From Clostridia bacterium (GTDB taxonomy: Bacteria; Bacillota; Clostridia; Peptostreptococcales; Anaerovoracaceae), in the NCBI GenBank assembly GCA_900754795.1, contig CAAEEA010000081.1, positions 6,314 to 70,313 on the forward strand: a stretch of 64,000 nt of DNA. Reading direction: 5' to 3'. The notes below the pieces were generated by a model. The model worked only from the letters and a program-made list of their open reading frames with translations. It was not told the DNA's origin and did no database searches. Below are positions 1 through 28,232 of this stretch, piece after piece. The position numbers and the translations under genes are program-made. Within the stretch, counting starts at the first letter, position 1. Each line of letters opens with the position of its first letter.

Positions 1-1501
<1,501 letters not shown>

Positions 1502-1577
1502 TCAAACCGAATAGGATACGGCAACAACATATCACAACTCGGTCGAGTAGTCCAGCGACTTTGCTGAAACAGTTTTG

Positions 1578-1781
1578 TTAACTTTTTCGACCGTTGATAA
1601 GGTATTTCAGTTTGTCCTTCGCTTCTTCCGTATCCTCACTGACAGAGAAACAAGACAGTACGGGATACTGCTTTCCTTCAACGGTCAGCACGTAACCGAG
1701 ACCGATATGCTGTGCTTCTCCTAATTCTTTCTGTAATTTCAAATTTTTCTCTCTACGCTTTTTCAGTAATTCAAAATCCAT
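1578..1781 (-). CDS. Small hypothetical protein (67 aa) upstream of the recombinase.
   Basis: Internal Met of the 106-aa track ORF (MDFELLKKRREKNLKLQKELGEAQ...), preceded by AAAGGAGAAAATATC-ATG. The longer N-terminal extension is Cys/Arg-rich and has no RBS. Confidence 0.5.
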   Translation of the reverse strand: MDFELLKKRREKNLKLQKELGEAQHIGLGYVLTVEGKQYPVLSCFSVSEDTEEAKDKLKYLINGRKS

Positions 1782-2287
1782 GATATTTTCTCCTTTCTTG
1801 CTACAACCCCTATCACAGCACCTATATTTTTCCCTTAAACACGGCACTTTCGGGGATCTGTGGCACCGTATACTGGCACAAGGCCTCTTTTGTGGCACCT
1901 AACTTTTTCAGTGTCCAAAATCCCGAAAACCCTTGTGCGGTCGGGGTTTCCGGCCGCTGTGATCCGAGTCGAGGGGCGTTTACGACCCCGACTCTTTCTC
2001 CTGCTTGATTTTCGACCCATCGAAAATGCCTGAAAGCTGCCTTGTATCACACCATATTTTGCCGTTTCAACCTTGCTCTCAAATCGCCCCAAACGGGCGA
2101 TTTTCTTTTTGGGCGAGTGTTCCTCGTATCTCTGTGTTCTTCGGCACACAGGCGGTCTGTGGGCGACACACGGGCATTCCGTGGAGGTAATCTATTCTCT
2201 TTTTTCTGTTGTAGTAGTTCCTGGGTTTTGTTCTATGGGTTTTCTTCTTGATAGGAAATCCTGACACTATCCAATGAAAGATTTACT

Positions 2288-2575
2288 CTACTCCAAAAGG
2301 CTTGCCACGTAGTAGAGGTTGCTCGTTCTCGTTCCGTCCTCTCGGTGCCGCTGAATCTTTTTCACCAGACCGAGGGATGAGAGATTTTCAATGGCAGAGT
2401 CAACGGTTTTCCTATCCATCCCGCACTCCTTTGCGATGACTCTCCGCGAGGGAAAGCAAGAGCCATCCTTGCTGTCACTGTGCCGAAGCAAACAGCAATA
2501 CACGGCGAAGTCTCTCGGCTTCAGTTCTAAATCAAAGATTCGATTGGGAACCATAAAGAAATTCTTGTGCTGCAT
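2288..2575 (-). CDS. Winged-helix/HTH DNA-binding protein (95 aa) typical of recombinase-linked mobile-element modules.
   Basis: Internal Met (MQHKNFFMVPNRIFDLELKPRDFAVYCCLLRHSD...SRRVIAKECGMDRKTVDSAIENLSSLGLVKK) with RBS AAAGGAGGATCGG-ATG. The HTH signature is IAKECGMDRKTV. Confidence 0.6.
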   Translation of the reverse strand: MQHKNFFMVPNRIFDLELKPRDFAVYCCLLRHSDSKDGSCFPSRRVIAKECGMDRKTVDSAIENLSSLGLVKKIQRHREDGTRTSNLYYVASLLE

Positions 2576-2966
2576 CCGATCCTCCTTTCGTTTGTGTTGA
2601 TTCTGAATTTTGATACAATCATTCACATTCCACCTTTCGATTTTTATGTAATCAAGGCGAGAGAGCAAAACAAAAAGACCCGCACCTACATGGGTACGGA
2701 AACACAAACAGGCGAACAAAATTGTTCGCTTAAAATGTTCCGTGCCGATGTATGTACGAGTCTATAACTCTGAATGGATGATCGTTGTCTTTCAAACGAA
2801 AGGATGACAGTAGTAACTGTCGTGGCACATATTATTCAATTTTCAGCCAATCTCTCGGTGCCCTTATTATACCATACGCAGGAAACTTTTGTCAAGGCAG
2901 GGTGAATAGTTTAGCTTTTAGTAGATATAATTCTTGCTTTACTAATCTTTTCATCTCTAAAACATA

Positions 2967-3007
2967 GAAACAAATGCTCCCCACTTTGAATGGGGAGCAT
3001 TTGTTTC
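2967..3007 (-). terminator. Intrinsic terminator hairpin just downstream of the helicase stop.
   Basis: Perfect 17-bp stem GAAACAAATGCTCCCCA / TGGGGAGCATTTGTTTC with a 7-nt loop, 4 nt after the TAA at 3012-3014. Confidence 0.75.
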
Positions 3008-3011
3008 TTAG

Positions 3012-6000
3012 TTAGAATGGTAACGAAACAGAAAGCTCATCTTCCTCTAGTGTTTCAACTGTTCCTACAAATTGTTGCAAGAATTCAATTGCTAATTTTC
3101 TGTCGAGCAAATCGTGAATCTTTTGATTTTCGTAACTACGCAAGCAGTTATAGCACGACGGTTCGCAATTACATTCACTCATCGATCTCAACGCCGACAT
3201 GAAGATGCTATGCAGCATTTTTCCGTCCTTGGTTACCAATCTTCTTGAGTGACCAGCACCGCCGGGAACGGAGTCGTAAATAACGATAGAGAAATTTAAA
3301 ATTCCATTAATGAGTTTGGCTGATAAGCACGCCTTAATATCTCGTCTTTCAATATTCAGATCTTTTGCCATCGCATTCAAGATCGCATACATTACCGACA
3401 CCATTGTATTATAGTCGGATGTGTTGCACTTGAAGGATATTTTAGCAACATCGGTTTTGAATTCATGATGGAGAGAGCGACGAACAAGTTCATGACAATT
3501 ACAGTTATACTGTCCATACAAGCTTTCGTGTGATTTTGTCGTCGTTACGGACAGTGCTCCACTACGCATCTGCTTTTCAATTTCTCTTTCGCCAATACCT
3601 TCATCTTCTGCTACTGCATAACCGCAGAGAGGACAAACATAGAAATTGCTAACAGATTTAACCATCAAGGAATCATTCGTTGTAGATTCGACCTGGATTT
3701 CTATTGAATTAAACAGATACTTATGCTTATCTATCGTTCTTGCAGCAACATTCCCAATGTAATAGTCTTCTGAACGATAATTTTTCTCCTGACGAGTCAT
3801 AGGTACATCTCGATCTTGTCGTTCGGCAACAAATCCCGAGCGCGGTTCTATACTTTCGTAGAAATCCATTTTGAACAGTTTTCTACCACAAGCCGAACAA
3901 GGGATGCCCTCACTTGTTATAGGCGTGATGCTGTAATTTACAGTATTGCAATCCTTATTTCGGCACACTCCAATATATCCCGTGTACCAGTCCTGCTTAT
4001 CTTTGCCTGTTGCGGATTTCTTGATGTAACGACTCGTATATAGTCTGCCGTCAGCGACAACCTCCGAGGAAGGCGCGTATTCAGCTATTGCAATCTGCAG
4101 ATCTCTGCTCAACCTCAACTTAGAAACATTGTTTGCAGTTGTATTTTGCTGTAGCTCAACAGTATTAACGGGGAAACCGTATCTCGGCAGTATATTTCCA
4201 CGAGCCAAGAAATCAATCAGCTTGTTTTTCTTGTAATGCTGAAGCTTTCTTTCGCACATAGCGGCTTTTGCCAAATCGTTTTCCCTCTTGAATTGCTTAA
4301 TTAACTTTTCAAAGTTTTTGATATTGTTCTCATATTCCTGAATCAATTGTGTGAACACCCCTTCGGGGCCGCTGAATTCTTCAATCCAAGAGAAATCATC
4401 AATACCGAGACGCTTATGCAAATTATCAAGATCTGGGATGGATGCCTTCAGCATATCTAAAAGTCTTTGAGGATGGCTATTGATCCACTCAATAAAGCCC
4501 TCGTATCCCTTTAGATTTATAAATTTATCGGCATCGTTATGATTGTATTGATCCTCGTGATCAGCAAAATATATGCTCAAAGCAACCGCATAGATATGTC
4601 TGCGAACAATCTTCTCGTTATCCACCTTAAAGAGCGGAGGAAGTATCGTTCCACCTATCATTCGCTTGGGATCTTTGAAGAATGCTAAGTCGTGAGAACT
4701 TAACTTTGCAAATGTAAGCACAAACGCTGCTGCATCAAGGCTACGACCTGCACGTCCGGCACGCTGTGCGTAGTTGGACGGCAGAGGAGGAACATCTCGC
4801 AAAAATACGGTTTCAAGGTCTCCAACGTCCACACCCATTTCGAAGGTGGTAGAGCAAGAAAGCGCATTGATTTCCTTCTTGATAAACTGCTCCTGATATT
4901 CTGCGCTCTCTTTTTTACTGAGCTGTGCTGTATGCTCTTTGATGAGCAATGGCGACATTCTATCGCTCATATACAGCTTTGCAAAGTGGTTATCTCTCGT
5001 AATATCATCGGGCGAGATCCGGGCGAGCTTTCCTTCGCATCTGACAGAAGGACAATGACCTAAATTGAACTGTGTGATCTTACCGCATTTCTTACAACGA
5101 TACCAATGTGCATTAGGAGAGCCGTTGATCTTTACGACAAAATGCTTTGCTCGAAGCACATAAGTTCCGTCTTTATTCAGATCATCCATACAATACGGAT
5201 TATCGCATTCAGGATCGGAAAGATACTCAAAGTACTGCGTTAAAAATTCTATCGCACGATCTTCGGATATACCAAGTGTGGAGCAAACATAATACAGACG
5301 ATTGGATTTATAGTATCCGTTTCCATTGCTCTTGCTTTTAGGCATCCAATTTGATACCGTTGCTCTCTTTCTTTCGGGTGATTGCATGAAAGCAACGAAT
5401 CTCTGCGACGGAGTAAAGAATATGTATTCTCGGTCATTATCATCAATATCACTATCGGAGTCTGTGTATATTGCTCCCATTTTAACGATTTCGAAGATTA
5501 ACAAATCGAGCAATGCCTTTACCGAAACAGGATCGGCATTATACAACTCCGCAATGCTTTCAACAATTTCCGGCGTATTACCTTTATACTCGAATTGTAT
5601 TTGACCTAACGCAGTAAGCGAGGTGGTAGAGTTATATCGAGCCAATTCGTTGAGAAGTGCAACCCAAGCGTTCTTACGACTATCAAGTGTAAGATTGCTT
5701 TCATCCGAATTACTCTTTGCAAAGCTTTTCTTTGCTGTGAAGTAATTAGTAAGCAAGGTAACAAAATCGGATATCGTATATTCATGGGATACGATTTCGT
5801 CTTTTCTTTCCGCAATGATGCGACAGATGCCACGTCTACGCAAGAATTCGTTATAGCTCTTACCTAAATAACACGCAAACTTAGCTGCTTCTTGTCTACT
5901 ATCGGAGAAAGCCAAGAACTGTCTGCCGGTCTTTCTTGCGACCTTTTTGTTTGCAGTTGCCGCCCTTGCGAAAATGTTTTTAGCTTTGGTTTGGTCTTCG

Positions 6001-7862
6001 CTTTCAACATATTCGATTTCGGGAAGCTCTTCATACAAAGAGGTTGCCAAAACAGCCGTTGCTGCATCATTACCAAGATATAACCTCTTATAATGACCAG
6101 TGTGACAGTTTCCGCATCTCGCTCCTATTTTGAGGATTTTCGCCTTAATGACCTTGATATAGTTTTCCTTGCCGCAATCGCAAGGCAGATTATGAATCTC
6201 ATTTTCGGCAACGATTGCTCCGCAGATCGGGCAGAGATAGAACACTTCTTTCTTTCCGTCGGTTTCGTCCTCAATGTCATCATCTTCAATATCGGCATTA
6301 TCATCGGCATCGAGATAGTAATATTCGACTTCTTCCTCGAGCTTGCTTGCCTGAACCAATCTACGACTTTCAATTTTGCCGACCAGTGCAATTCTTCCGC
6401 AATCATCACAAACGGCTGCTTCAAATACAGCAGATTCCTTGCCGTTCTCCCAATAGGTTCTTTGGCGGTTCAAGAACAACCGCTTATCTCCATTCAGAGT
6501 AATATAACAACCTTCGAGGCTACGGATAAAGAAGTGATACCTTGCATCAATCAAGGATTTTTTGTTCTTTTGTGCGCGAGTGCAAAGCGAAATGAACGCA
6601 ATTGCACCATCCATGTTAACAGATAACTTTTCACCGATCTCAGACAACTCGCAAATACCGCCAAGGCGGAGGCGCAATGCATGGTATAGATCAGAGGTCA
6701 GCAAGAAATCATACAGAAGCTCTTTTTCGTCAGTTGCTTTATCAACATTAAATCCGTAATCATTCAGAACCTGCCACACAAAATTTTCGCCATCCGCTAA
6801 CTTTTCATATAACTCGTTTGGATATTTTTTTATCGTGGCATTAGGAACATACGGCTCTCGTTCGGCTCTGATAATATACTTCTTGTCAAAGCTTACACCA
6901 CAGAGGTTTTCTGCAAATGTGATAATATCATCGTCTACGCTGCTATCACTACCCAAAGTAGCACTCGTTAGGATAAAGCGTGTATCCTTGGTAGCCGAAA
7001 TTCTTGCTTTTAATCTACGAAGAAGGATCGAAGTTTCGATACCTGTTGCTCCTGTGTAAATATGTGCTTCGTCCAAAACAACAAATCTAAAATCCGCATT
7101 TGAGAAAAGCACATCATCCTTCGGACGCAACAGCAAATGTTCGAGCATCGCATAGTTGGTAAACAAGATGTTCGGAGGATTCTTCTTCATCTCGTCACGA
7201 GATAGAATTTCGTTAGGCAATCTGTGGCGAAGCTCAGGCACTTTTTCTTTTGCGAACATAGCTTCATATACGGCAATAGCACTTTCTTCATCATTTTCTG
7301 TGCCGCCATTATATGCGCCGAAGGTTATATCAGGATAGCACATCAAGATCTCCCTGATATTCTTCATTTGGTCGTTTGCGAGAGCATTCATCGGATAAAT
7401 GAATAATGCACGAACACCTTTGCCGAGCGTACCTTGCTCCTTTTCTCGTAACAGTTCATTTAATACGGGAATTAAGAAGCAGTTCGTTTTACCACTACCT
7501 GTACCGGTAGAAACAACTGCGTTATTTCCACCAACGATAGCACGAATTGCTTTTTCCTGATGCAGATACAAGTTACGAGTTATCGGAAGTTTGTGCTTAT
7601 GTAACTTATCGTTCGGCTTGCCTGCTTCAAGCTCTCTGAACAGCGGAGAAAGAGGACAATCTGCATCCTCAATCATTTCTTCGATTGATTTGCCGCTCTT
7701 AAATACATCTTTAATTTCAAGCAATGGGCCGCGAGCAATATTCGCCCTTAACTCTTTTACAAACTGCTCTTGTAAAGAAGGATTCGCAAACGCATGCGTT
7801 GTCGCTATGTAGTCTATAAATTCTTCTTTTATGTTTGATGATGCTTTAGCCGGATTGAACAT
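3012..7862 (-). CDS. 1616-aa SF2 DEAH-box helicase with Zn-ribbon insertions and a C-terminal DUF1998/MrfA-type Zn-binding domain (COG1205-like; DruE-like).
   Basis: Motif I STGTGSGKT (7485-7511), motif II DEAH (7062-7073), motif III TSAT, motif IV-like FLAFSDSRQ, motif V TFEMGVDVG, motif VI QRAGRAGR (4743-4766). The C-terminus has GGAGHSRRL and CNCEPSCYNC...YENQ..H..LDR (3144-3173). RBS GAGGAGGTG; the ATG lies 1 nt after the upstream stop. Confidence 0.9.
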   Translation of the reverse strand: MFNPAKASSNIKEEFIDYIATTHAFANPSLQEQFVKELRANIARGPLLEIKDVFKSGKSIEEMIEDADCPLSPLFRELEAGKPNDKLHKHKLPITRNLYLHQEKAIRAIVGGNNAVVSTGTGSGKTNCFLIPVLNELLREKEQGTLGKGVRALFIYPMNALANDQMKNIREILMCYPDITFGAYNGGTENDEESAIAVYEAMFAKEKVPELRHRLPNEILSRDEMKKNPPNILFTNYAMLEHLLLRPKDDVLFSNADFRFVVLDEAHIYTGATGIETSILLRRLKARISATKDTRFILTSATLGSDSSVDDDIITFAENLCGVSFDKKYIIRAEREPYVPNATIKKYPNELYEKLADGENFVWQVLNDYGFNVDKATDEKELLYDFLLTSDLYHALRLRLGGICELSEIGEKLSVNMDGAIAFISLCTRAQKNKKSLIDARYHFFIRSLEGCYITLNGDKRLFLNRQRTYWENGKESAVFEAAVCDDCGRIALVGKIESRRLVQASKLEEEVEYYYLDADDNADIEDDDIEDETDGKKEVFYLCPICGAIVAENEIHNLPCDCGKENYIKVIKAKILKIGARCGNCHTGHYKRLYLGNDAATAVLATSLYEELPEIEYVESEDQTKAKNIFARAATANKKVARKTGRQFLAFSDSRQEAAKFACYLGKSYNEFLRRRGICRIIAERKDEIVSHEYTISDFVTLLTNYFTAKKSFAKSNSDESNLTLDSRKNAWVALLNELARYNSTTSLTALGQIQFEYKGNTPEIVESIAELYNADPVSVKALLDLLIFEIVKMGAIYTDSDSDIDDNDREYIFFTPSQRFVAFMQSPERKRATVSNWMPKSKSNGNGYYKSNRLYYVCSTLGISEDRAIEFLTQYFEYLSDPECDNPYCMDDLNKDGTYVLRAKHFVVKINGSPNAHWYRCKKCGKITQFNLGHCPSVRCEGKLARISPDDITRDNHFAKLYMSDRMSPLLIKEHTAQLSKKESAEYQEQFIKKEINALSCSTTFEMGVDVGDLETVFLRDVPPLPSNYAQRAGRAGRSLDAAAFVLTFAKLSSHDLAFFKDPKRMIGGTILPPLFKVDNEKIVRRHIYAVALSIYFADHEDQYNHNDADKFINLKGYEGFIEWINSHPQRLLDMLKASIPDLDNLHKRLGIDDFSWIEEFSGPEGVFTQLIQEYENNIKNFEKLIKQFKRENDLAKAAMCERKLQHYKKNKLIDFLARGNILPRYGFPVNTVELQQNTTANNVSKLRLSRDLQIAIAEYAPSSEVVADGRLYTSRYIKKSATGKDKQDWYTGYIGVCRNKDCNTVNYSITPITSEGIPCSACGRKLFKMDFYESIEPRSGFVAERQDRDVPMTRQEKNYRSEDYYIGNVAARTIDKHKYLFNSIEIQVESTTNDSLMVKSVSNFYVCPLCGYAVAEDEGIGEREIEKQMRSGALSVTTTKSHESLYGQYNCNCHELVRRSLHHEFKTDVAKISFKCNTSDYNTMVSVMYAILNAMAKDLNIERRDIKACLSAKLINGILNFSIVIYDSVPGGAGHSRRLVTKDGKMLHSIFMSALRSMSECNCEPSCYNCLRSYENQKIHDLLDRKLAIEFLQQFVGTVETLEEDELSVSLPF

Positions 7863-7863
7863 T

Positions 7864-10620
7864 CTATTTCACCTCCTCGGTGCTAAAGAGGAAATAATCA
7901 ATTCCTCTCGTATTTCTATTAAAATTGCTAATTCTGTTTTTGGTGTCAAGAGTGAATTCACCTAAGAAGTCGTCCATATCGTCGGGATTAACACCGGCAA
8001 CGATGAAACAAGAATTTTCGCTCCTGAGTTCGAGCCTTATTGGATTGATATCATCGTATGTTCCTTCGCTGTTTGCCATGGTGTTCAAATAGGTTTTCCA
8101 ACCATCACGATTGATAATATAGGCACTTCCAGTATAATAATGACAGCCGTCAAACTCTCCTATATACCAAAGGTGATCCACATAGAAGGGCTTGATTTCC
8201 TCATACGAAGCCTTGCCTGTTAGCATTACCTTTTCAAAGCGCAGACTTTTGCCCTTGAAGCGAATCTTGTTGATATCGCCAAACACCACTTGTTGCTCGA
8301 ATAAGCGGAGAGGCTTTTCGATAAATCCAACTCGCTTCATCAAATCAACGGTAACATCATAAATACCTATTTCAAGCTCAGCTAATGAGAAGTATCTACT
8401 CTTATAGTTTTCATCGATGGTTTCGCTGACGTCGAAGCTATGCTTTACTGTATCATTCTCACAGAAAGAGATTCTGAATTTTGGCGTGGAATCGCCAACA
8501 AAAGATTTGCCCACATCCCACAGCATCTCTTTTCCGCTTATTACAAAAGGCGAGAATTTGAGTTTTTCCTTCAAGCAAACTGTTAAGATAGGAATAACAG
8601 CGATATCCTCAACTTTTACGAATACGATAATTTCATTCCTACCATCTTGCAGCATAGACCAGAGAGTTTCGCCAAGCTTAAATGAATTGAATGCTGCGCT
8701 GTCGGACAAAACAGTGTTGTTATCCAAGAACACTTGGTATCCCATTTCTGTAGGCAAATCAATAATAAGCTCTGCTGAATTGGAATAATTCCTATACCAC
8801 AAATCCTCTCCGTACTGCGATGAAAATTCGCTATCGCCAAATTTCCATCTTAACACGGGCGGAGAAAGAACGATATCGCCATCATCAAACGGAATCACAG
8901 CATTGCCTTGGTTGATATCAAACGATATGATTTTATCGTATTTTTCCGTATGGAAGCGCACTGTACCAATGTTTTCCTTATCAAAATACAGCTTTTTATC
9001 GTAGGTAATGCTTATGCTGTTAAACTTTACAACATTGTAGGACGTTTCAATTTTGTTATCCGCATAGCTGAAAATATTGATTTTCTGCGGTTCGCACACA
9101 TTGAGCAGTTCCGTGATGAAAAAGGTTTTATATCCTTCGCTTTCTTCGCAAGTGAACGCACTCAGTTTAAAGTCGGTAGATTCATAACGTACGCCGTATT
9201 TAGATATATCAATATCCGACTTTACGACAACTTGCAAATCACCATCGATGACGATAAATTCCTCGCCGTCGTGTATAAACTTTGTATTATTCTTTCGATC
9301 TGCGGTAATTCTTATGTTGCGTTTCTGTTTTTCAACTACGAAGAAAACCGTTCGCTTCGAACTTTGTAACAGTTCACCCTCTTGTGCCTGAAGAATATAC
9401 AAATTTGGTTCACCTGAAACTTTTTTTATACTTTCGGGATGTGCCGAGAACTCCTCTAATTTAGGCGCGAACAATATGTAGTTTCCGGGAAGACATTCCT
9501 CTTGCAGGATTTCCCTATGATCTCTAAAGACAACATACTCTCGAAACAAGCTTGTCTTTGAGTTGTAAATGACATCTCCGCAATGCACGATCTCCAAGAT
9601 GCAATCTATTATGCCATCCTCAAAAACGAGATTGTCTGCGAACAAAGACAGTTCCTTTGTTGCCATGGTAAGACCCGAACCGAATGTGTACATTTCTCTT
9701 TGGTCAACAAGCTCTCCGTTACGATAAATATTCAGAAGAGGCATATCGTAAAAATTGTTTTTCAGACGAATACTTGGTATTGTCAAAATAGCTTGTTTGC
9801 CGTTATAGCTATATTTAGGCCGAATCGTTGAGTAATCGGTTATTGCTCGTTCATATGATTTTCTCTTGGGTTTGGCAACGCCAAAGCTTTTTTCTTTTTC
9901 CGTCCACCAATCACGAACAAGGATATTATAATATCGGTCGTTATCAAGGATTTCTCCACCAAACACCCTGTCCAACAAGGAGATTGTGCCTTCGATATAC
10001 TTGACCATTTCTTCCGGACTGTCGATTGCCATTCGCTTGATTCCGGCACGCAAAAAATATACGCCACTACCAAGCTTGAGGTCATCCTCCAAAGATTTCT
10101 CATAAGAGAAGGTTCTCTTAAGCTCCTCAGCAACGAGAGCAAATGTGTCATCGTTCTTCGTATATGTAAAATTCATATCCTCGGAATACAGATTCCAACA
10201 CAATTCCAAAAAGGATTCCGTAGAGTTGAGCGGAGCGAATGCGTGCGCTAAAATAGTGGCGTAATAGCGTTTCGTACAACCTGACAAATACATGATTTTG
10301 CCACGTTTTCCGAGCCTGTCAATTACACTCGTGAGATATGTATATATTTTCTGTGAGCCATACGAGCCGATCAACTTTTTATAGATACAATCCCAAAAGG
10401 TATCCTCTTCTGACTTCCAAGTTTTTACGGCATTCACCATAGCAACAAAGACGAGTTCATCATATCCTTGCGATATGCTGTTCCCCCAACCGCCATCATA
10501 GTTGCGAAGCAAGCAGCCTGTAAAGTCATATACACGCGCTAATTCCTCGTCGGAAAACACATAGTTACCGACAAAAGTTTCATTCATTGCTTCGCTTATC
10601 TTTGGTAACAACTCTTTCAC
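7864..10620 (-). CDS. 918-aa protein of unknown function, translationally coupled to the helicase (possible DruH-like partner).
   Basis: Long uninterrupted ORF with a GTG start preceded by TAGGAGGATCTC. Codon usage is as AT-rich as the helicase. I found no Walker A, HNH, PLD (HxK) or PD-(D/E)xK signature by eye. Confidence 0.8.
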   Translation of the reverse strand: MKELLPKISEAMNETFVGNYVFSDEELARVYDFTGCLLRNYDGGWGNSISQGYDELVFVAMVNAVKTWKSEEDTFWDCIYKKLIGSYGSQKIYTYLTSVIDRLGKRGKIMYLSGCTKRYYATILAHAFAPLNSTESFLELCWNLYSEDMNFTYTKNDDTFALVAEELKRTFSYEKSLEDDLKLGSGVYFLRAGIKRMAIDSPEEMVKYIEGTISLLDRVFGGEILDNDRYYNILVRDWWTEKEKSFGVAKPKRKSYERAITDYSTIRPKYSYNGKQAILTIPSIRLKNNFYDMPLLNIYRNGELVDQREMYTFGSGLTMATKELSLFADNLVFEDGIIDCILEIVHCGDVIYNSKTSLFREYVVFRDHREILQEECLPGNYILFAPKLEEFSAHPESIKKVSGEPNLYILQAQEGELLQSSKRTVFFVVEKQKRNIRITADRKNNTKFIHDGEEFIVIDGDLQVVVKSDIDISKYGVRYESTDFKLSAFTCEESEGYKTFFITELLNVCEPQKINIFSYADNKIETSYNVVKFNSISITYDKKLYFDKENIGTVRFHTEKYDKIISFDINQGNAVIPFDDGDIVLSPPVLRWKFGDSEFSSQYGEDLWYRNYSNSAELIIDLPTEMGYQVFLDNNTVLSDSAAFNSFKLGETLWSMLQDGRNEIIVFVKVEDIAVIPILTVCLKEKLKFSPFVISGKEMLWDVGKSFVGDSTPKFRISFCENDTVKHSFDVSETIDENYKSRYFSLAELEIGIYDVTVDLMKRVGFIEKPLRLFEQQVVFGDINKIRFKGKSLRFEKVMLTGKASYEEIKPFYVDHLWYIGEFDGCHYYTGSAYIINRDGWKTYLNTMANSEGTYDDINPIRLELRSENSCFIVAGVNPDDMDDFLGEFTLDTKNRISNFNRNTRGIDYFLFSTEEVK

Positions 10621-10642
10621 GAGATCCTCCTAATAATGATTG

Positions 10643-10828
10643 TTATTCTGCTGCGTTACCTTCTTTTATCCACGCATCGACCTCGGATATCTTAAACTTC
10701 CAAAGTCTACCGACCTTTGATGCAGGCATTTCACGCTTTGCAATCCAAGTTAGGACGGTATCACGACTGACTCCAAGATGCTCCATAATTTCTTTAAGAG
10801 AACACCATCTTTCTGCTTCGTTGTTCAT
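10643..10828 (-). CDS. Excisionase-family / MerR-like HTH DNA-binding protein (61 aa).
   Basis: Internal Met with RBS GAAGGAGGTTCGT-ATG. The sequence MNNEAERWCSLKEIMEHLGVSRDTVLTWIAKREMPASKVGRLWKFKISEVDAWIKEG follows the HTH_17/excisionase pattern (L..s..TV..wi....P..kvGr.w.f...e.d.W). Confidence 0.7.
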   Translation of the reverse strand: MNNEAERWCSLKEIMEHLGVSRDTVLTWIAKREMPASKVGRLWKFKISEVDAWIKEGNAAE

Positions 10829-10867
10829 ACGAACCTCCTTCGACATAAAGGTATAAAAATCTACTTT

Positions 10868-10896
10868 ATTATACAATATTTTTGGCGTTCTATCAA
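10868..10896 (-). promoter_or_regulatory. Sigma-A type promoter for the three-gene cassette.
   Basis: On the minus strand: TTGATA (10891-10896), 17-nt spacer, extended -10 TGTATAAT (10868-10875). It lies about 40 nt upstream of the HTH start. Confidence 0.65.
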
Positions 10897-10939
10897 TCTA
10901 TTACAGTTGTTTATTGTGGTTTTATAATGGTTAACAAGA

Positions 10940-10976
10940 AAAGATCCATCACAGATTCTATCCGTGATGGATCTTT
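10940..10976 (-). terminator. Intrinsic terminator, probably ending the upstream core operon, at the island/core junction.
   Basis: Perfect 13-bp stem AAAGATCCATCAC / GTGATGGATCTTT with an 11-nt loop, followed on the minus strand by TCTTGTT. Confidence 0.6.
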
Positions 10977-11072
10977 ATTATCCTATTCGGTTTTTGGTTT
11001 TCTTCGTTAAGGACATCCCGCTTTGGGACCGGTTCTTTTTTAATCTCTGTTCCAATATTCGGTCTGGAAACG

Positions 11073-12083
11073 CTATATCCTGCCTGCTCTGGCTGCTTCT
11101 TCCACAGATACCGCTACGGCCACCGTCGCGCCTACCATAGGGTTGTTACCCATTCCCACATAGCCCATCATCGCCACATGAGCAGGAACTGACGAAGATC
11201 CGGCAAACTGGGCGTCTGAATGCATTCTTCCCATGGTATCAGTCATACCGTAAGAAGCAGGCCCCGCGGCCATATTGTCCGGATGGAGAGTTCTGCCGGT
11301 GCCTCCGCCGGAAGCGACGGAAAAATATTTTTTGCCTTTTTCCCAGCATTCCTTTTTATATGTGCCGGCTACGGGATGCTGGAATCTTGTAGGGTTGGTC
11401 GAATTGCCGGTAATGGAGACATCTACGTCTTCAAGGTGCATAACAGCTACGCCTTCGCGGACATCATCTACTCCGTAGCAGCGCACCTGAGCTCTCTCTC
11501 CTTTTGAATAAGGTATTTCTCTGACAACGCTTATCTGCCCGCTGTGGTAATCAAAGCTTGTCTGAACATAAGTAAAGCCGTTTATCCTGGAGATTATCTG
11601 AGCCGCGTCTTTTCCCAGCCCGTTGAGAATCACTCTGAGAGGAGTTTTGCGTACTTTGTTCGCGGATCTTGCAATGCCGATAGCGCCTTCAGCCGCGGCA
11701 AAAGATTCGTGTCCCGCGAGAAAAGCAAAGCACTTTGTCTCATCTCTAAGCAGCATGGCCGCAAGATTGCCGTGTCCTATACCGACCTTTCTGTCCGCTG
11801 CCACAGATCCATCCAGGCAAAAGGCCTGCAATCCTTCACCTATGGCTTCGGCGGCGTCCGCCGCGGTGCGGCAGCCTTTTCTGATCGCTATGGCTGCTCC
11901 TGCTACGTAAGCGTAGCGTACGTCTTCAAAGCATATGGGCTGTATGTTTTTTGCGGTCTCATAAGGGTCGATTCCCGCTTTTTCACAGATTTCCCGCGCG
12001 TCCATGAGGTCTTTTATCCCGTATTTGCCGAGGACGGACAGGATATTGCCGATTTTTCTTTCGTAGTTTTCAAAGGTTATCAT
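11073..12083 (-). CDS. GGGtGRT family protein.
   Basis: Literal GGGTGRT motif (11289-11309) within SVASGGGTGRTLHPDN. RBS GGAGGACAGAG-ATG. Confidence 0.8.
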   Translation of the reverse strand: MITFENYERKIGNILSVLGKYGIKDLMDAREICEKAGIDPYETAKNIQPICFEDVRYAYVAGAAIAIRKGCRTAADAAEAIGEGLQAFCLDGSVAADRKVGIGHGNLAAMLLRDETKCFAFLAGHESFAAAEGAIGIARSANKVRKTPLRVILNGLGKDAAQIISRINGFTYVQTSFDYHSGQISVVREIPYSKGERAQVRCYGVDDVREGVAVMHLEDVDVSITGNSTNPTRFQHPVAGTYKKECWEKGKKYFSVASGGGTGRTLHPDNMAAGPASYGMTDTMGRMHSDAQFAGSSSVPAHVAMMGYVGMGNNPMVGATVAVAVSVEEAARAGRI

Positions 12084-28156: not shown

Positions 28157-28232
28157 GCGCCAGTAGCTCAGGGGATAGAGTAGCACACTCCGAATGTGAA
28201 GGCCGCGGGTTCGATTCCCGCCTGGCGCACCA
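28157..28232 (+). tRNA. tRNA-Arg (anticodon CCG), with encoded CCA.
   Basis: Hand-folded cloverleaf: acceptor GCGCCAG/CTGGCGC, D arm GCTC..GAGT, anticodon loop CTCCGAA (CCG at 28190-28192), T arm GCGGG-TTCGATT-CCCGC, then ACCA. Confidence 0.85.

Follow-up and report, generated by a model that had tools for sequence, protein, structure and literature searches.

The question that this locus raises is whether a three-gene cassette ending in a large helicase is a known anti-phage defence system or brings a familiar helicase together with a new partner. The cassette lies in a 64,000-nt stretch of DNA from a gut Clostridia bacterium (GCA_900754795.1, contig CAAEEA010000081.1, positions 6,314-70,313, forward strand), hereafter the window. 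An earlier note on this DNA had allowed for two readings, a Druantia type III-like system or a DruE-like helicase with an undescribed partner, and this two-way reading is supported both by the DruE family membership of the helicase and by the failure of its partner in the tests for DruH. We infer that the core of the cassette is probably a Druantia type III-like two-gene defence module with a non-canonical partner. What is new here is the pairing of a DruE-like helicase with a partner that is unmatched to DruH by sequence, the helicase type itself being already known.

The cassette consists of three minus-strand open reading frames (ORFs), which encode a 61-aa protein (10828..10643), a 918-aa protein with a GTG start (10620..7864) and a 1616-aa protein (7862..3012). 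The ORFs are separated by 22 nt and then by a single nucleotide (TAG-A-ATG at 7866..7860), and all three starts are preceded by a GGAGG-type ribosome-binding site, which confirms the arrangement and the coordinates first given for it.

The last gene had been read as a DruE-like COG1205-type helicase, and the profile searches bear this out. In PADLOC, the 1616-aa protein matched DruE1 (E 1.7e-170) and DruE3 (E 3.9e-167) as well as DruE2 and DruE4 (the weakest at 4e-107), with the DruE models aligning over most of its length, whereas all non-DruE helicase models were far weaker (DrmA, E 1e-15). Pfam placed DEAD, Helicase_C and MZB (E 3.3e-12) on it, all above cutoffs. The helicase motifs of this superfamily 2 (SF2) protein were found in its translation where the earlier note had placed them, except that Walker A or motif I, GTGSGKT (K125, 7485..7505), ends at 7505 and not at 7511. 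They include motif II, DEAH (D264-H267, 7062..7073), motif VI, QRAGRAGR (4743..4766), which is conserved in the alignment to E. coli DruE, the GGAGHS motif (3246..3263) and the cysteine cluster CNCEPSCYNC of the C-terminal MZB/DUF1998 zinc domain (3144..3173), on which Pfam, the translation and the E. coli DruE alignment agree. The protein holds seven CxxC motifs, consistent with the zinc-binding modules of the defence clade in Bell et al. Among solved structures, its best match (E 1.5e-83) was PDB 9tu7, a 2108-aa helicase from an entry series in which DruH (9tud) is also found.

When the helicase was aligned with a reference E. coli DruE (2104 aa, from plasmid NZ_CP127005.1), its residues 84-1594 matched DruE residues 85-1712 at 26-28% identity. 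The window protein stops 22 residues past the aligned region, while E. coli DruE runs about 390 residues further, an extension that the literature describes as tandem phospholipase D (PLD) nuclease domains. No PLD domain was found on the helicase in the Pfam scan and, since the protein ends right after the MZB zinc domain, it has no room for a C-terminal nuclease domain. Classified by these matches, the 1616-aa protein is a DruE-family, YprA/MrfA-like SF2 helicase lacking the nuclease domain. As a side observation, precomputed Pfam annotation places PF27116 (YjiV_N) on the helicases of two related loci (L001 and L043) and of others. The DruH (YjiT) family includes yjiT of the E. coli K-12 immigration control region, and the Pfam name YjiV_N suggests that the adjacent gene yjiV is DruE-related.

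The partner gave a different picture. Pfam, NCBIfam and PADLOC gave no match to the 918-aa protein, the last of them even at E<=10. The 11 PADLOC DruH models, which span DruH diversity, matched neither the partner nor eight distant members of its family nor a C. butyricum relative, although the same models recognised the positive control, E. coli DruH (1119 aa, 'STY4851/ECs_5259 family'), with up to 2539 bits. The PADLOC check that had been proposed for the two genes therefore returned DruE for the helicase and nothing for the partner. The relatives of DruH, down to 21% identity, carry the Pfam domains YjiT_N (PF27201) and YjiT_2nd (PF27205), bar one fragment, whereas neither these nor other Pfam domains are precomputed on any of the 120 listed relatives of the partner. 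A full-length profile-profile comparison (hhalign) between a 42-sequence alignment of the partner family and a 25-sequence alignment of DruH was non-significant (probability 1.4%), and reciprocal hmmsearch between the two families gave negative bit scores. Searched against PDB sequences, the partner profile produced two chance-level matches (E about 0.7-0.9), none of them to DruH 9tud. A sister family of about 1070 aa, described below, scored E 0.4 against DruH and so provides no bridge between the two. The partner family was also not described in any of the papers that our search retrieved on Druantia, DruH or YprA-family systems.

We then compared the predicted folds of the two proteins. In the AlphaFold2 model of the partner (pLDDT, for predicted local distance difference test, 87), residues 1-245 are helical, and the all-beta residues 268-917 form an array of immunoglobulin (Ig)-like domains. 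In the model of E. coli DruH (pLDDT 83), residues 1-247 and 842-1119 are helical and residues 260-831, between them, are beta, in agreement with the published cryo-EM structure of DruH, which has an N-terminal helical domain, six Ig-like domains together with a domain at the C-terminus. The modelling and Foldseek search suggested for the 918-aa protein thus yielded a fold plan, but Foldseek against PDB and BFVD returned only generic tandem Ig or fibronectin type III (FN3) proteins, with a template modelling (TM) score of about 0.1. The DruH model, run as a control, also retrieved generic Ig/FN3 arrays and not 9tud, showing that 9tud is missing from the library, so this null result is not evidence against a similarity to DruH. 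A secreted or surface Ig protein was considered and rejected, the N-terminus of the partner being helical and devoid of a signal-like hydrophobic stretch.

This plan raises the possibility that the cassette is a canonical Druantia III system of the III-B branch, whose partner is a true DruH, too diverged for profiles to detect and with its C-terminal domain lost or replaced. The gene order and the coupling to a DruE-family helicase are those of canonical Druantia III, and the III-B ('Druantia type III-like') helicases are described as being most often without the nuclease (Bell et al., 10.1101/2025.09.15.676423). In the models, the N-domains of the partner and DruH are equal in size, with collinear helices, and are followed in both by Ig-like arrays. 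An hhalign comparison restricted to the N-domains scored 26.4 (P 0.005), with residues 26-141 collinear with residues 33-141 of DruH; column-shuffled controls, 60 in number, reached at most 17.9 and a reversed control reached 14.9, column shuffling being a lenient null for helical domains. The N-domain match, taken from profiles and models together, suggests a very distant relationship between the partner and DruH. Hence, given a fold plan like that of DruH, the 'new partner' may be a DruH that has diverged very far, and not a protein without relation to it. Against this stand the 11 DruH models that detect E. coli DruH and none of the searched members of the 918-aa family, the restriction of YjiT_N and YjiT_2nd to the DruH side, the non-significant full-length comparison and a C-terminal third that differs in fold class, all-beta in the partner and all-helical in DruH. 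On balance, we regard a true but diverged DruH as rather unlikely, and favour a non-canonical partner in a Druantia III-like module.

The association of this partner with a DruE-like helicase is not peculiar to the window. A survey of one genome per species, scanned with the partner profile, gave 34 loci in Clostridia, Christensenellaceae, Erysipelotrichaceae, bins labelled 'Mollicutes' and one Spirochaetales bin. A DruE-like helicase directly follows the partner in 29 of these 34 loci, or 29 of the 30 that could be evaluated: four of the other five end at a contig edge and one (L030) is differently arranged. The two genes are spaced by a few bases or overlap. The partner diverges faster: in loci where it retains 34-45% identity, the helicase retains 62-75%, and DruH is likewise reported to evolve faster than DruE (Wu et al.). 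A whole-library HMMER search with the partner profile retrieved 543 clusters at 50% identity. By tblastn, the partner was found in 0 of 50,697 phage records and in 1 of 72,556 plasmids, so that phages and plasmids are not typical carriers of the cassette.

The first gene of the cassette does not share this conservation. It encodes a 61-aa DNA-binding protein of the HTH_17/excisionase family (10643..10828, minus strand; Pfam HTH_17, E 3.9e-14; NCBIfam 'excise' domain, E 1.1e-13), where HTH stands for helix-turn-helix. Its start is ATG 10828, since the alternative TTG 10876 lies upstream of the -10 box of the promoter and since homologous loci call a 61-aa gene. An identity as MAD1 of the MADS system, for which PADLOC mad1 gave E 6.5e-9, was rejected: the protein scored 64.7 bits against NCBIfam NF047737, below the cutoff of 80, as a generic member of the HTH_17/excisionase family. 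The HTH_17 gene is limited to loci whose partner is at least 64% identical, a close subclade, and is missing from three of these; it is therefore accessory. Hence the cassette does have the three coupled genes that had been described, but a three-gene system was rejected as a reading, the conserved unit being partner and helicase. The HTH_17 protein is encoded by an optional first gene and in all likelihood either regulates the operon or is a factor of the mobile element.

The cassette is the cargo of an integrative element of about 11.3 kb with a large serine recombinase, of which a full copy is present in a related metagenome scaffold (L043, 9597-~20900). From position 11024 down to 1, the window is 99.6% identical to the scaffolds L043-L048, whose copies sit between tyrS and dapB, and a third flank is found in L009. 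The same element thus occupies at least three chromosomal insertion contexts (the window, L043-L048 and L009). Its gene order is HTH_17, partner, helicase, HTH_36, a 67-aa ORF and a 553-aa large serine recombinase. The right end (11002..11024, minus strand), where the homology to L043 and L009 begins and beyond which the flanks differ, carries a 16-nt terminal inverted repeat, GATGTCCTTAACGAAG (11017..11002). The opposite end, seen in L043 alone, reads CTCCGTTAAGAACATC, a 15/16 reverse-complement match to the first. The recombinase gene (2..1462, minus strand) runs past the start of the window, which holds the first 487 of the 553 residues, and is identical to the L043 gene, which carries the Resolvase, Recombinase, Zn_ribbon_recom and DUF4368 domains. 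These domains in a large serine recombinase at one end, the short terminal inverted repeats and the several insertion sites are shared with integrative elements of Clostridia that use a large serine recombinase, such as the Tn4451 family, and a related locus (L004) has TnpV; unlike those elements, no mobilisation or resistance genes were seen in this one, whose cargo is the helicase cassette.

In L004 and L043 the pair rides on serine-recombinase elements, and type I restriction-modification (R-M) genes adjoin it in three further loci (L001, L050 and L051); the copies in L001, L004, L050 and L051 are the more distant ones. As the pair also occurs beside type I R-M genes without a recombinase element, it is cargo and not part of the element backbone. 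The suggestion that gene order, tight coupling and mobile-element context fit a defence function holds up well in view of the 29 loci with the pair, the R-M neighbours and the position of the cassette as element cargo.

The same context bears on whether the pair could be a housekeeping or element-serving module for DNA repair or replication, similar to MrfA/YprA, rather than an immune system. YprA helicases with an MZB domain include the repair enzyme MrfA of B. subtilis, which shares with the window protein the SF2 DEAH core and the four-cysteine MZB domain, and the helicase matches PDB 6znp (YprA) with E 3.5e-17. The cassette lacks a nuclease, and the mobile element that carries it could require a helicase. 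However, the MrfA match covers RecA1 alone (residues 97-188), whereas the DruE models extend over the greater part of the sequence. MrfA, at about 750 aa, is without the inserted zinc modules, works with the MrfB exonuclease and is chromosomal housekeeping, unlike the window cassette, which is mobile-element cargo. The occurrence of the pair next to R-M genes without the recombinase element, its patchy distribution, its carriage by the element to three different sites and the fast evolution of the partner, which is unlike that of housekeeping genes, all argue against such a role, and we consider it very improbable next to a defence module of the Druantia III type.

We also looked at the wider family of the partner. 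In a few loci outside the main survey arrangement, members of the family again accompany defence helicases of the YprA type, in other architectures. In L030 (1249-10725), a partner homologue comes after DrmA (E 1e-140), DrmB (E 2e-42) and a NERD-SF1 (superfamily 1) helicase, and in L053 (144-13625) a partner-UvrD fusion is followed by DrmA, DrmB and a NERD-UvrD protein, with an HpaII R-M pair adjoining. No description of a DISARM-like gene set with a partner homologue was found in the Druantia, DruH and YprA literature searched. Two family members of 1350-1680 aa (P0204 and P0254) have N-terminal domains like the C-terminal domain of the RNA polymerase alpha subunit (alpha-CTD-like, helix-hairpin-helix), and P0204, in L052 (241-4608), is followed by a DruE-like helicase 44% identical to that of the window. 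The sister family of about 1070 aa, to which a C. butyricum megaplasmid led, comprises at least 374 clusters at 90% identity in Clostridia. It is homologous to the 918-aa family over the full length (E 6e-62) and has an additional N-terminal repeat region of about 170 residues. On the C. butyricum plasmid pNPD4_2 (L008, 4783-12668), a sister-family gene precedes a 1559-aa DruE-like helicase that is without a nuclease.

It is quite possible, though short of likely, that the partner family is an undescribed superfamily with a helical domain plus an Ig array (at least 543 clusters plus the sister family of about 1070 aa), distinct from DruH and filling the DruH slot as a modular sensor or adaptor of YprA-type defence helicases. 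Its architectures would be the pair with a nuclease-less DruE-like helicase, the DISARM-like DrmA-DrmB-NERD-helicase cassettes and the fusions to UvrD or to alpha-CTD-like domains. If this is true, the window cassette represents a new Druantia type or a new system, and Ig-array partners have been recruited to these helicases more than once. The presence of the family in DISARM-like cassettes suggests an accessory module common to helicase-based immune systems.

How, then, does the cassette compare with the systems already known? Druantia type III-A is reportedly the DruH-DruE pair of E. coli and P. aeruginosa, said to go back to Doron et al. 2018. As in III-A, the core of the window cassette is an operon of two tightly coupled genes, in which the one for the large partner comes ahead of the one for the DruE-family helicase. 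Over about 1500 aligned residues, the helicase has the SF2 core, zinc modules and OB-CON-MZB in common with III-A DruE, and the partner resembles III-A DruH in its predicted helical N-domain of about 245 residues followed by Ig-like domains. The faster divergence of the partner and the defence-island or mobile-element context are likewise common to both. Unlike III-A DruE, the window helicase is without the tandem C-terminal PLD nuclease (1616 versus about 2100 aa). Unlike III-A DruH, the partner is shorter (918 versus about 1119 aa), gives no YjiT_N/YjiT_2nd or DruH hidden Markov model (HMM) match and is predicted to carry beta domains in place of the helical C-terminal domain in which DruH has a pocket for single-stranded DNA (ssDNA) and ATP. 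The HTH_17 gene is extra, and the host belongs to Bacillota, not Pseudomonadota. At the level of sequence, an assignment to Druantia III fails on DruH, and one to III-A fails on the PLD nuclease too.

Closer in size is the system of M. smegmatis (MSMEG_1253/1254), in which a DruH of 1132 aa and a DruE of 1667 aa form an experimentally active defence, the reported domains of this DruE being DExD/H, helicase C-terminal and DUF1998 alone (Cell Insight 2026; PMC13316683). Compared by description, the window cassette is like the III-B and M. smegmatis systems in having a helicase of about 1650 aa, most often without a nuclease in III-B and without a reported one in M. smegmatis, and two overlapping or coupled genes, while its partner is about 200 residues shorter than the M. 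smegmatis DruH. With DISARM it shares a helicase of the same YprA superfamily, and relatives of the partner stand inside DISARM-like cassettes (L030 and L053). Unlike DISARM, whose helicase is divided between DrmA and DrmB, the window helicase is a single fused protein of the DruE type. DISARM was rejected as an identity, given the weak DrmA match and a cassette without methyltransferase, DrmC or SNF2 helicase.

The earlier note had held that the mechanism of this class is poorly understood, a statement that is now dated, since papers of 2026 give structures and biochemistry for Druantia III. We propose that a two-gene Druantia type III-like anti-phage module rides as cargo on the serine-recombinase integrative element of about 11.3 kb. 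By homology to the DruE proteins of E. coli and P. aeruginosa and to MrfA, the helicase would load where intermediates of phage replication or recombination are single-stranded and, as for DruE and MrfA, would move 3'->5' and use ATP to unwind duplex DNA. The partner, translationally coupled and encoded upstream, would be a cytoplasmic protein that takes the place of DruH and, as the faster-evolving subunit, would probably sense infection or present the substrate, and so license the helicase. As the helicase is without a nuclease domain, interference must come by one of three other routes. The N-domain of the partner may have a nuclease or DNA-processing activity, host nucleases may be recruited, or the circularisation and replication of phage DNA may be blocked without nucleolysis, as is reported for M. 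smegmatis DruH-DruE (PMC13316683).

Several points weigh against this proposal. The partner is not recognisably DruH in any sequence test, and the transfer of a mechanism from Druantia III is therefore by analogy. In the AlphaFold2 models, the partner is without the helical C-terminal domain of DruH (842-1119), with beta structure there instead, and it is this domain that houses the ssDNA/ATP-binding pocket (R1031, H1062, R1064 and K1067). The whole cassette yielded no nuclease motif. The papers on Druantia III conflict on DruH, which they describe as an exonuclease, a dimer-dependent nickase or an ATP-competed ssDNA binder; the proposed 3'-5' exonuclease acts through the N-domain and the ATP-gated ssDNA binding through the C-terminal domain. 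The defence-island context was sampled in a handful of loci, and that the cassette defends is itself something that we infer.

These same absences would make the cassette useful, because a variant without the PLD nuclease and without DruH's C-terminal domain is a natural experiment on the mechanism of Druantia III. If the cassette defends, the minimal machine is a helicase, an N-domain and an Ig array, and the nuclease and ATP-pocket models become directly testable. Druantia III is among the commonest phage defences. Since the PADLOC DruH models, Pfam and NCBIfam all miss the partner, a rule that requires DruH plus DruE would overlook this system in gut Bacillota, an annotation gap that a profile of the 918-aa family would fill. 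The 11-kb serine-recombinase element is in turn a compact defence carrier, by which the cassette has apparently been transferred from one site to another.

The cassette is bracketed by expression signals of its own. A sigma-70-type promoter, TTGATA-17-TATAAT, lies at 10896..10868 on the minus strand, 40 nt upstream of the start codon of the HTH_17 gene, and its 11/12 consensus matches agree with the near-consensus promoter first proposed there. As a class, promoter-like matches are about as frequent as in shuffled sequence (24 found versus 21 expected), and this promoter is credible because of its position and score, not because of statistics. At the other end, a terminator is present as had been noted, but this intrinsic terminator spans 3008..2966 (minus strand) with a T tail and a 20-bp stem that includes 8 G-C pairs, in place of 17 bp at 2967-3007; it begins 4 nt past the stop codon of the helicase. 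A repeat scan around the cassette promoter found one hairpin alone and no convincing operator, and an Rfam scan of positions 1..11200 of the window gave zero RNA families. The hairpin (10940..10976, minus strand), with a 17-bp stem, is 44 nt upstream of the promoter, close to the element end on its inner side, and may be an insulating terminator against read-through or a recombinase-binding site.

The composition of the cassette is less distinct than had been claimed. In place of a contrast of about 20 points, with 57-60% GC outside, we measured 40.9% GC in the cassette (38-44% per 500-nt window) versus 47.9% in the remaining window, so that the cassette is about 7 points richer in AT than the rest; the left part of the same element has 46.8% GC.

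Rightward of 11024, the window continues with ordinary chromosomal genes, among them a GGGtGRT protein, an ABC transporter and a 5'-nucleotidase. Distant from the element, at 28157-28232, lies a single tRNA-Arg (CCG) gene; the element is not tRNA-inserted. Within the element backbone, the 95-aa HTH_36 protein (2288..2575, minus strand; Pfam HTH_36, E 2.2e-15; called as a gene in L043) has a perfect 12/12 sigma-70 promoter with an extended -10 (2895..2866, minus strand). Two hairpins (2729..2712 and 2700..2679) lie within the leader of about 290 nt that precedes its start at 2575, which may be a regulated leader.

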